A DNA stretch of 56,497 nucleotides. Origin: a virus. Taxonomy: Duplodnaviria; Caudoviricetes. The stretch is from the IMG/VR virus record IMGVR_UViG_3300008267_005425, positions 1-56,497 of that record. The stretch is one strand, 5' to 3'. The position numbers and the translations under genes are program-made. This document shows, in pieces, positions 4,032 to 20,363 of the stretch; positions within the stretch are counted from its first letter, which is position 1; every line of letters begins with the position of its first letter. The notes beneath the pieces are model-generated. The model made no database searches, was not told where the DNA came from, and worked only from the letters and a program-made list of their open reading frames with translations.

Positions 4032-4706
4032 TTATTTTCTAATAAACCAATGAACTTGGTTTGGGTGTACACTTAACTTCAGATCATTTTGATTGACAAA
4101 ATCAGTCACAGCATTTCTAACATCTGCACAGGTCCAATCATCACCAAAGATTAATCCTCCTTGTTTGGCTAGAGGGTAGTAATTAGTTAAGTCTAAAATC
4201 ACATCCCAATACTCGTGGCTTCCATCGATGTAGATCATATCCGCTTGTAGGTTGTTCTTTTCGAACACCTTTTGTAAGATTATTGCTGCAGTGATTGATG
4301 GATATGCAAAAGGTAATATGCTGTTTTGCAATTCAGCGTAACATATATTCGCTAAGAAGTTGTAATAGAATGTTGGGTATCCATTTTTTCTCTTTATTCG
4401 TGATGTTGGGTTGAATGTAGCTTCCTCCCAATGATCTGCACCACCCATCCAACTATCAACACACAAAGTGACGCCATCTGGATTATTTTTTATCATTTCG
4501 GTAGTCATTCCAGTTGCAGACCATCCAAGAAACGATCCTACTTCTAATATAAGTGATGGCTTTTCTTCTCGAACAATTGATTGTAGTAACTCGTTAGCTG
4601 GCATAGAACCAGGTGATAGTGTGTTTTCGTATTGCGTGTGTTCGAAGTTCTCGTAAACGTCCAACTCTCCATGAAGTAGTGATTTGATCTTTGTGAATTG
4701 TGTCAT
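4032..4706 (-). CDS. Class I SAM-dependent methyltransferase (Methyltransf_24-like)
   Basis: LEVGSFLGWS, CVDSW, DMIYIDGSHEY, GGLIFGDD. Confidence 0.9.
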   Translation of the reverse strand: MTQFTKIKSLLHGELDVYENFEHTQYENTLSPGSMPANELLQSIVREEKPSLILEVGSFLGWSATGMTTEMIKNNPDGVTLCVDSWMGGADHWEEATFNPTSRIKRKNGYPTFYYNFLANICYAELQNSILPFAYPSITAAIILQKVFEKNNLQADMIYIDGSHEYWDVILDLTNYYPLAKQGGLIFGDDWTCADVRNAVTDFVNQNDLKLSVHPNQVHWFIRK

Positions 4707-15828: not shown

Positions 15829-15836
15829 TATAAATA
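15829..15836 (-). promoter_or_regulatory. Putative late promoter TATTTATA
   Basis: One of eight exact intergenic copies just 5' of a minus-strand gene. Confidence 0.65.
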
Positions 15837-19824: not shown

Positions 19825-19857
19825 TTGTATAACTGTTTAATTTAATATAAGAAAAAA

Positions 19858-20353
19858 AGACCTTAGAGCAAACGATTTCTTACTTAATCTGTAACTTTTT
19901 TGGTTTTGCTTGCTCTGCAAAAGGAATTGTGATAATCAGCAATCCATTTTCCATTGTAGCTGTACTCTCGGCTAGAGTGTACTTTGGTGAAATTTTGTAC
20001 GCTAAATTGAACGAACGACGAGCGATGCCTCGACACTGGTAGGTACGGGCTTCCTCGGTTCCATCGTAAACTTTGGGTTTGTTGTAGTTTACCTTTAAGA
20101 CATCTAACTCAATATCAATGTCAACCTCGTCTTTGGTTAGACCGGTGCATGCGATCTCAAATACAAGACCGTCTGAGTGTTCGTAAATGTCTACTGGGTG
20201 TGGAATTTTGATCTCTGAAATAGATCCGAAACGCGATTGCGCGTTAAATAAGTCCCGGAATAGGACGTCAAAAGTGACTTCTGTGCTCATAATGTTTACC
20301 TCCTTAGATGGTTAATAAATTGTTTCTCAAAACTAGGGCTTGCCCTAAGGTCT
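19858..20353 (-). repeat. Inverted repeat (19858-19873 / 20338-20353) flanking hsp20
   Basis: On the mRNA, 5' AGACCUUAGGGCAAGC pairs with 3' GUUUGCUCUAAGGUCU (14 Watson-Crick + 2 G-U pairs). Confidence 0.8.
19880..20290 (-). CDS. hsp20: Small heat shock protein Hsp20
   Basis: PVDIYE, EIACTG, RGIARRSF, ATMENGLLII; strong SD AAGGAGGT at 20298-20305. Confidence 0.93.
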   Translation of the reverse strand: MSTEVTFDVLFRDLFNAQSRFGSISEIKIPHPVDIYEHSDGLVFEIACTGLTKDEVDIDIELDVLKVNYNKPKVYDGTEEARTYQCRGIARRSFNLAYKISPKYTLAESTATMENGLLIITIPFAEQAKPKKLQIK

Positions 20354-20355
20354 AA

Positions 20356-20363
20356 TATAAATA
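20356..20363 (-). promoter_or_regulatory. Putative late promoter TATTTATA upstream of hsp20
   Basis: Repeated intergenic motif. Confidence 0.65.

Follow-up and report, generated by a model that had tools for sequence, protein, structure and literature searches.

We analysed a 56.5-kb fragment of the genome of an uncultured virus (IMG/VR record IMGVR_UViG_3300008267_005425); "the window" is this whole stretch of 56,497 nucleotides (nt), which CheckV places at about one third of the genome. By rough open reading frame (ORF) calls, 75 of its 76 genes lie on the minus strand, among them polA, hsp20, groES and groEL in a row. Our subject is the messenger RNA (mRNA) of hsp20, whose leader and 3' untranslated region (UTR) can pair into a long-range helix, P1, and whose leader also holds a smaller hairpin, P2. 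Among named phages the closest is Flavobacterium phage vB_FspM_immuto, with about 66% nucleotide identity in parts of polA and groEL; there groES-groEL stand directly behind polA without hsp20. No motif resembling a Shine-Dalgarno (SD) sequence occurs within 22 nt of the start in 72 of the 75 minus-strand genes; upstream regions are A-rich, and AGGAGG is found upstream of hsp20 only. Both the SD-poor gene set and the nearest phage fit a host of the Bacteroidia type, whose ribosomes are reported to be blind to the SD (PMC13000453, PMC9976891, PMC7797042). The features of the locus are as follows, in the order of transcription.

22616-20376, minus strand: polA, an ORF.
20363-20356, minus strand: promoter-like motif TATTTATA, separated by 2 nt from the 5' arm of P1 that follows; a putative promoter.
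20353-20338, minus strand: 5' arm of P1, AGACCUUAGGGCAAGC (DNA AGACCTTAGGGCAAGC), at or adjoining the putative 5' end of the transcript; paired in both the minimum free energy (MFE) and the centroid fold.
20348-20333, minus strand: local hairpin UUAGGG-CAAG-CCCUAG, which overlaps the 5' arm and is possible only before the 3' arm has been made.
20312-20298, minus strand: hairpin P2, ACC-A(bulge)-UC-UAAG-GA-GGU, whose 3' half is the apparent SD UAAGGAGGU.
20290-19880, minus strand: hsp20 coding sequence, an ORF of 136 amino acids looped out by P1 (Pfam HSP20, E 4.6e-11).
19873-19858, minus strand: 3' arm of P1, GUUUGCUCUAAGGUCU (DNA GTTTGCTCTAAGGTCT), with 6 nt between the TAA stop and the arm.
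19857-19852, minus strand: U tract, six T directly past the 3' arm, or seven consecutive U with the last base of the arm; a putative part of a terminator.
19851-19827, minus strand: motifs CTTATATT ... GTTATAC before the groES start codon (19824); a candidate groES promoter.
19824-19522, minus strand: groES, an ORF (Pfam Cpn10).
19519-17876, minus strand: groEL, an ORF (Pfam Cpn60).

The initial annotation of this DNA had proposed a helix of 16 base pairs (bp) between the two UTRs, with two G-U wobbles. Its coordinates and pairing are correct on the mRNA strand: all 16 positions pair, 14 as Watson-Crick and two as G-U pairs, and the 3' arm begins at the seventh base past the hsp20 stop codon, so that the helix encloses a loop of 468 nt. 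Folding of the window's 510-nt RNA gave P1 and P2 together, in the MFE structure as well as in the centroid (z -3.47). Many inverted repeats of similar length are scattered over the 56-kb window, and the length of P1 therefore proves nothing by itself. Just six genes in the window have intergenic DNA on both sides. Among these, hsp20 alone has a flank-to-flank helix (z 6.4, with none of 200 shuffles reaching it), and no second gene with paired ends was found, the other five scoring z 0.8 or less.

The question of chance is settled by relatives of the gene. We gathered loci encoding relatives of this Hsp20 in three sets: 7 retrieved with the single protein, the best 80 of 284 from viral contigs and the best 80 of 461 from metagenome contigs, the two contig collections overlapping. 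There were 168 loci with a tblastn match; three lacked a start codon in the stored DNA, and of the remaining 165, 156 had full flanks and 110 had non-identical flanks. In each of the latter the 5' flank (-130 to -20) was hybridized with the 3' flank (+1 to +70) and with 20 dinucleotide shuffles of that 3' flank. The cognate duplex beat all 20 shuffles in 105 of the 110 loci. Its mean energy was -36.2 kcal/mol, compared with -19.3 kcal/mol (standard deviation 4.2) for shuffled flanks and -24.1 kcal/mol for the 3' flanks of other loci, and in at least 94 loci the cognate flank was among the best 11 of 110 possible partners. Arm sequences diverge widely between clades while complementarity is kept, as in the pairs ACTTTAGGGAGC/GCTCCCTAAAGT, GACCTAGGAGGC/GCCTCCTAGGTT, CAACCCAAGGGCGCA/TGCGCCCTTAGGGTTG and GTGAAACCTTAGGGAAC/GTTCTCCTAAGGTTTCAC. 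Even in the closest relatives (93% protein identity), helix position 7 has gone from U-A to G-U, with both sides changed. The arms retain a conserved core, YUURGGG/CCCYARR. In 71 of 98 related loci the core of the 3' arm starts no more than 10 nt past the stop codon. When extended into the flanks, the related helices have 22 pairs at the median and average -30.7 kcal/mol.

To assess covariation, we aligned 26 full-length RNAs, picked from the 110 for diverse arms (locus L130 was left out), with MAFFT and no further adjustment. RNAalifold predicts 15 pairs in this alignment, eight in P1, five in P2 and an invariant 2-bp contact, and 13 of these pairs show compensatory changes. When the 16 bp of the window's P1 are laid on the alignment together with P2, 84.0% of the cells are paired, compared with 67.2% after shuffling (0 of 500 shuffles reach the observed value), and pairing falls to 39-47% when the structure is slid by one to three columns. 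The covariation score is 0.480 against 0.218 for shuffled alignments, and 20 of the 21 pairs have changed on both sides. A second, independent column-wise count over 97 distinct arm windows gave 78.6% paired, against 65.6% (maximum 68.7%) with permuted partners.

If the arms are maintained as RNA, imperfect pairs should be those that the sense transcript tolerates, as the initial annotation had suspected from the two wobbles in the window. We aligned each 5' arm to the reverse complement of its own 3' arm, scoring both kinds of transition alike. The 64 distinct core arm pairs contain 46 mismatches that are G-U on the sense strand, 5 that are A-C (G-U only on the antisense strand) and 15 transversions; counted as distinct events in 27 arm clusters, the excess is 35 to 5 (binomial p 1.4e-6). 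This core-only test supersedes a first gapped alignment of the DNA arms (105 against 31), which held noisy A/T-rich extensions. Four-fold degenerate sites of hsp20 favour C over G (skew -0.37) with T about equal to A (-0.04), so a C-to-T mutation bias of the sense strand does not explain the G-U excess. The unit also keeps its orientation: the side that carries the promoter-like motif is constant in 96 of 98 loci, all 27 of 27 representatives have a same-strand gene behind the unit, and no inverted state was seen in either set. The G-U excess, the four-fold-site skews and the constant orientation together indicate that selection acts on the helix as sense RNA. Collectively, these comparisons show, at the level of sequence, that P1 and P2 are selected RNA structures of the sense strand, and the initial suspicion of selection on the arms as RNA is borne out by both the covariation and the wobbles.

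P2 follows one plan, a stem of 3-4 bp, a bulged A, two further pairs (nearly always UC/GA), a loop of 4-5 nt and the closing strands, and this architecture is present in all 88 distinct leaders, in 21 sequence variants, when strict shuffles yield a mean of 2.1 of 88. Stems include ACC/GGU, AUC/GAU, ACU/AGU, GCUG/CAGC, GGUU/AACC and GAGU/ACUC, and in the 26-RNA alignment 100% of the P2 cells are paired, with double changes in all five pairs. The SD named in the initial annotation, AAGGAGGU, is the 3' half of this hairpin. In the window's clade GGAGGU is held in P2, with a predicted probability of 0.68 at 37 °C and 0.43 at 55 °C. In relatives the same strand drifts off SD complementarity (GGAGAU, GGAAGU, GACAGC), and the P2 of most clades is devoid of an SD-like sequence, its end lying 14-18 nt or more ahead of the AUG. 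In its geometry P2 may resemble coat-protein operator hairpins. A search of Rfam 15 at E up to 10 gave nothing relevant in this region of the window, only three chance-level matches, and no match apart from transfer RNA (tRNA) in eight related loci. Two further short motifs accompany these elements: UUAACC stands directly before P2 in most clades, and AGUUAY lies behind the 5' arm in the clades with an AGACC arm.

The start of the transcript may be placed from the motif TATTTATA, which occurs ten times in the window. Intergenic DNA makes up 4.7% of the window and holds eight of the copies, each on the coding strand and 11-73 nt before a gene start, making the motif a likely phage promoter element. 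These intergenic sites, of the form (C/A)TATTTATA on the minus strand, are at 15836, 20363, 36820, 41964, 46251, 51560, 52704 and 55700. Two copies lie only 11-12 nt before an ATG start codon, which suggests leaderless or near-leaderless mRNAs. Because the motif is intergenic, lies on the coding strand and in some cases stands this close to a start codon, we provisionally place the hsp20 transcription start a few nt past it, at the first bases of the 5' arm; in 96 of the 98 related loci a similar motif stands no more than 30 nt from the 5' arm.

At the other end of the unit, a pair of motifs, GTATATT and GTTATA(C), precedes groES in the window and in relatives (for example locus L001, 4566-4628) and may be the groES promoter. 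The pair persists at locus L174 (about 1140-1200), where no hsp20 precedes groES and no arm is present, and immuto has tatttattcatatatt at the same polA-groES junction. In the hsp20 clade of the L048 and L084 type, the 3' arm lies between the two motifs. The initial annotation had seen a different promoter here, TTGCTC-N16-TATATT overlapping the 3' arm. The pattern is present as written, but its supposed -35 element, TTGCTC, is arm sequence that changes with the arm in other clades; no site of the sigma-70 type scored, and we reject such a promoter as neither scored nor conserved.

What might P1 do? Because a U run follows the 3' arm, the core of the arm lies near the stop codon and a terminator scan finds no local terminator after hsp20, we read P1 as a constitutive end-to-end clamp rather than a switch, one that protects both ends of the hsp20 mRNA and, with the U tract, supplies the sole terminator-like stem before groES. 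We hold this reading with moderate confidence; put more broadly, P1 probably stabilises or ends the hsp20 message instead of switching it. In this model hsp20 would be transcribed from its own phage promoter, TATTTATA, and a weak local hairpin would hold the 5' arm during transcription until the 3' arm is made and displaces it. The first bases of the transcript would then pair with those just past the stop codon and make the 0.5-kb message a closed loop (through a longer helix in other clades), with P2 forming at the same time in the leader. P1 would hide the 5' end from 5'-end-dependent ribonucleases (RNases) and block 3' exonucleases, and in the window's clade the helix and U tract between hsp20 and groES-groEL would yield a stable monocistronic hsp20 mRNA. 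Since the 3' arm lies 6 nt past the stop codon, terminating ribosomes would have to open the inner pairs of P1, which could couple the clamp to translation.

The part of this model that concerns termination applies within limits. Like a Rho-independent terminator, P1 has a stem containing G+C and a U tract immediately behind it; in place of the short loop of a local hairpin it has a loop of 468 nt. The U tract is kept in the clades with AGACC arms, and this conserved run, with no local terminator nearby, makes the long-distance terminator-like stem of the initial annotation plausible for the window's clade. It does not extend to the family as a whole. At least five T in the next 8 nt past the extended helix were counted in only 20 of 98 loci, although this count is unreliable since duplexfold stretches the helix into A/T-rich flanks, and in some clades the 3' arm comes behind the GTATATT motif or abuts the start codon that follows. 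With U-rich tails not universal and the 3' arm so placed, termination is not a family-wide function.

Several further points weigh against the clamp. We know of no experimental precedent for a terminator hairpin with a 470-nt loop. The putative transcription start of hsp20 is placed by motif spacing, and metatranscriptome contigs show neither starts nor ends of transcripts. Such contigs do contain hsp20 relatives 93-99% alike, which, with DNA carry-over possible, do not prove transcription; sequencing runs matched with small shares only (at most 0.18), and four of them were examined as Logan contigs. The clamp also leaves the function of P2 unexplained, and the conserved core YUURGGG/CCCYARR hints at a protein or nuclease partner that lies outside the model.

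A rival reading takes P1 for a processing stem of RNase III or another double-strand-specific nuclease: on longer transcripts, such as those reading through from polA, it would be cut to release an hsp20 mRNA with paired ends, apart from groES-groEL. The length and stability of the extended helices and the conservation of the core sequence favour such a stem; the stretch from polA to hsp20 holds no terminator other than the weak local hairpin; and the 5'/3' pairing of icaR is described as an RNase III substrate (PMC3868564). In the window, however, the helix has just 16 bp, stems of this kind having about two turns of double-stranded RNA, and the additional pairs of the extended helices may lie upstream of the transcription start. 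We regard processing of this kind as unlikely, and it is in any case compatible with a clamp.

A more speculative reading, to which we give little credence, gives P2 a task of its own. P1 and P2 would make up an expression module that is dedicated to the small heat-shock genes of phages and works in SD-blind hosts of the Bacteroidia type, the clamp making a closed, long-lived message and P2 serving as a site for a protein or for specialised ribosomes. In the window's clade P2 would offer a perfect 9-nt SD that ordinary host ribosomes could not read. If this reading were true, translation of hsp20 would be favoured under stress, for instance through ribosomes without bS21, as has been described for rpsU.

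The initial annotation had instead proposed a three-state RNA switch or thermosensor, in which the 5' arm alternates among the 3' arm, the local hairpin and a helix masking the SD, and thereby sets both hsp20 translation and read-through into groES-groEL. All three pairings can be drawn in the window, where the local hairpin and the CUAAGG before GGAGGU (20298-20305) are present as written. Their predicted occupancies are far from equal. When the RNA is folded across temperatures, as the annotation had recommended, P1 stays formed, with a probability of 0.99 at 4-37 °C that is still 0.98 at 55 °C and 0.93 at 75 °C, and the alternatives are close to zero in the full-length RNA. Pairing of the 5' arm with the SD has a probability of 0.000 in the full-length RNA and at most 0.001 in a 150-nt nascent RNA.

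Relatives speak against SD masking as well. The arm substitutions of L003-type (CCUGAG) and L093-type (CCCUAG) loci are compensated in both P1 and the local hairpin but break the pairing with an unchanged CUAAGG, and in other clades this pairing is missing. Its supposed target is moreover the 3' strand of a conserved hairpin that forms together with P1, in a phage whose genes mostly do without an SD. The local hairpin fares better: it covaries in the three nearest subclades (UUAGGG/CCCUAG, CUGAG/CUCAG, CUAGG/CCUAG) and is predicted at 0.66-0.88 in the 150-nt nascent RNA, falling to 0.001 or less at full length. It is no general feature of the family, since the corresponding segment of 95 leaders has a mean of -5.4 kcal/mol against -5.3 for dinucleotide shuffles (mean z -0.09). 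From the fold probabilities, the L003 and L093 substitutions and the family-wide stability of the hairpin segment, we conclude that the 5' arm does not mask the SD and that no switch operates at equilibrium; the folding predictions leave room at most for the local hairpin to give way to P1 during transcription. A three-state switch is thus very unlikely, and what stands of the initial proposal is a selected RNA helix and a plausible terminator-like stem.

Finally, the arms could act as DNA, either as terminal inverted repeats bounding an hsp20 cassette that can move or invert, or as paired operator half-sites bound by one protein, and the unit with its arms does sit in several gene neighbourhoods and is absent between polA and groES in immuto and L174, but this is extremely improbable given the strand-asymmetric mismatches and constant orientation described above, arms that tolerate bulges and length changes and lie exactly at the putative transcript start and just past the stop codon, no recombinase adjoining the unit in the loci examined, and no arm remnant at the two loci without hsp20.

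We therefore return to the clamp and to where it is found. Among 27 representatives, the gene downstream of the hsp20 unit encodes Cpn10 in ten and otherwise DNA ligase, adenylosuccinate synthetase or proteins of unknown function; upstream lie PolA, PolB, an FkbM-type methyltransferase or unknowns. As judged from these contigs, P1 and P2 travel with hsp20 into differing gene neighbourhoods. A tblastn search of 50,697 phage records for cultured relatives found none at E 1e-8, and at E 0.01 only cyanophage Hsp20 appeared (26-34% identity). Two of these cyanophage loci lack a flank clamp, since 32 and 99 of 100 shuffles fold equally well, and carry ordinary local terminators. In 185,579 species genomes the Hsp20 family was not found, except for one distant match at 30% identity.

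Individual contigs add some detail. The L007 clade is the sole clade in which a clamped hsp20 stands apart from groES-groEL; in L007 a tRNA gene scoring 57 bits and a weak, sub-threshold tRNA-like match of 25.6 bits lie within 1.5 kb of hsp20, at 4275-4346 and 1581-1663. L004, a 7.7-kb contig, has an hsp20-groES-groEL unit and arms identical to those of L003 and L005 and a different upstream gene, encoding a 184-amino-acid protein instead of polA. The contigs part immediately upstream of the promoter motif, at what is either a recombination boundary or an assembly chimera. L173, a 166-kb contig of a related phage, has a small heat-shock gene of a different family (160 codons) in the same place before groES (648-1200), with TATTTATA upstream. 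A possible 7-bp end pairing there, AGAGCAA/UUGCUUU, has its arms directly past the promoter motif and directly past the stop codon, and is too short to judge alone.

Long-range pairing between the UTRs of bacterial-type mRNAs has so far been a matter of a handful of experimentally studied genes. In phage hsp20, end pairing is deeply conserved and covaries across a gene family, and is joined by a second conserved leader hairpin. The roughly 100 natural sequence variants provide a test series for how end-to-end pairing affects the life-time of an mRNA, its termination and its translation. What looks like the ribosome-binding site of hsp20 is part of a structured element, in a phage that otherwise makes no use of such sites, and this also alters how the regulation of the gene is to be read.

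We found no publication on the 5'/3' helix of phage hsp20, and several known systems invite comparison. In the stems that flank 16S and 23S ribosomal RNA, distant sequences pair and loop out a functional RNA, forming RNase III sites in non-coding precursors. The long-distance pairing and looped-out RNA are alike, but hsp20 RNA is a translated mRNA. Small heat-shock genes are also known for RNA thermometers, such as ROSE, fourU and that of cyanobacterial hsp17. P2 likewise is a weak leader hairpin holding the SD-like sequence of a small heat-shock gene; it differs in having no Rfam match, in lacking an SD in most clades and in belonging to a phage that otherwise does not use the SD. The extended SD of rpsU reported in Flavobacteriales resembles the lone extended SD-like UAAGGAGGU in a gene set otherwise without SD sequences; the hsp20 sequence is, unlike it, half of a hairpin whose stem covaries off SD complementarity (PMC9976891, PMC13000453, PMC7797042).

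Two bacterial mRNAs share with hsp20 the complementarity of leader and 3' UTR segments within one gene. In Staphylococcus aureus icaR the 3' UTR pairs with the SD, blocks initiation and feeds RNase III (PMC3868564). In the phage the SD-like sequence lies outside the long-range helix, whose partner segment pairs elsewhere, and the 5' arm:SD pairing is not conserved, so a translational block of this type is not what we find. Closer is hbs of Bacillus subtilis, where 14 bp that join the 5' UTR to the 3' UTR limit cleavage by RNase Y (PMC5737220). As described there, both cases have a short helix (14 bp in hbs, 16 bp in phage hsp20) between leader and 3' UTR on the mRNA of a small gene, and in the highly expressed hbs it acts on RNase access and mRNA stability and not as a ligand switch. 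The hbs 5' segment, by that description, lies within the leader downstream of two hairpins, whereas the phage arm is at the putative transcript start; the hbs 3' segment lies upstream of a normal terminator, whereas the phage arm itself carries the U tract with no separate terminator. Compared with this account of hbs, the phage clamp has P2 in addition, is conserved across a large phage gene family and draws its support from phylogeny (about 100 loci). By analogy, the clamp on phage hsp20 may work as the helix of hbs does.

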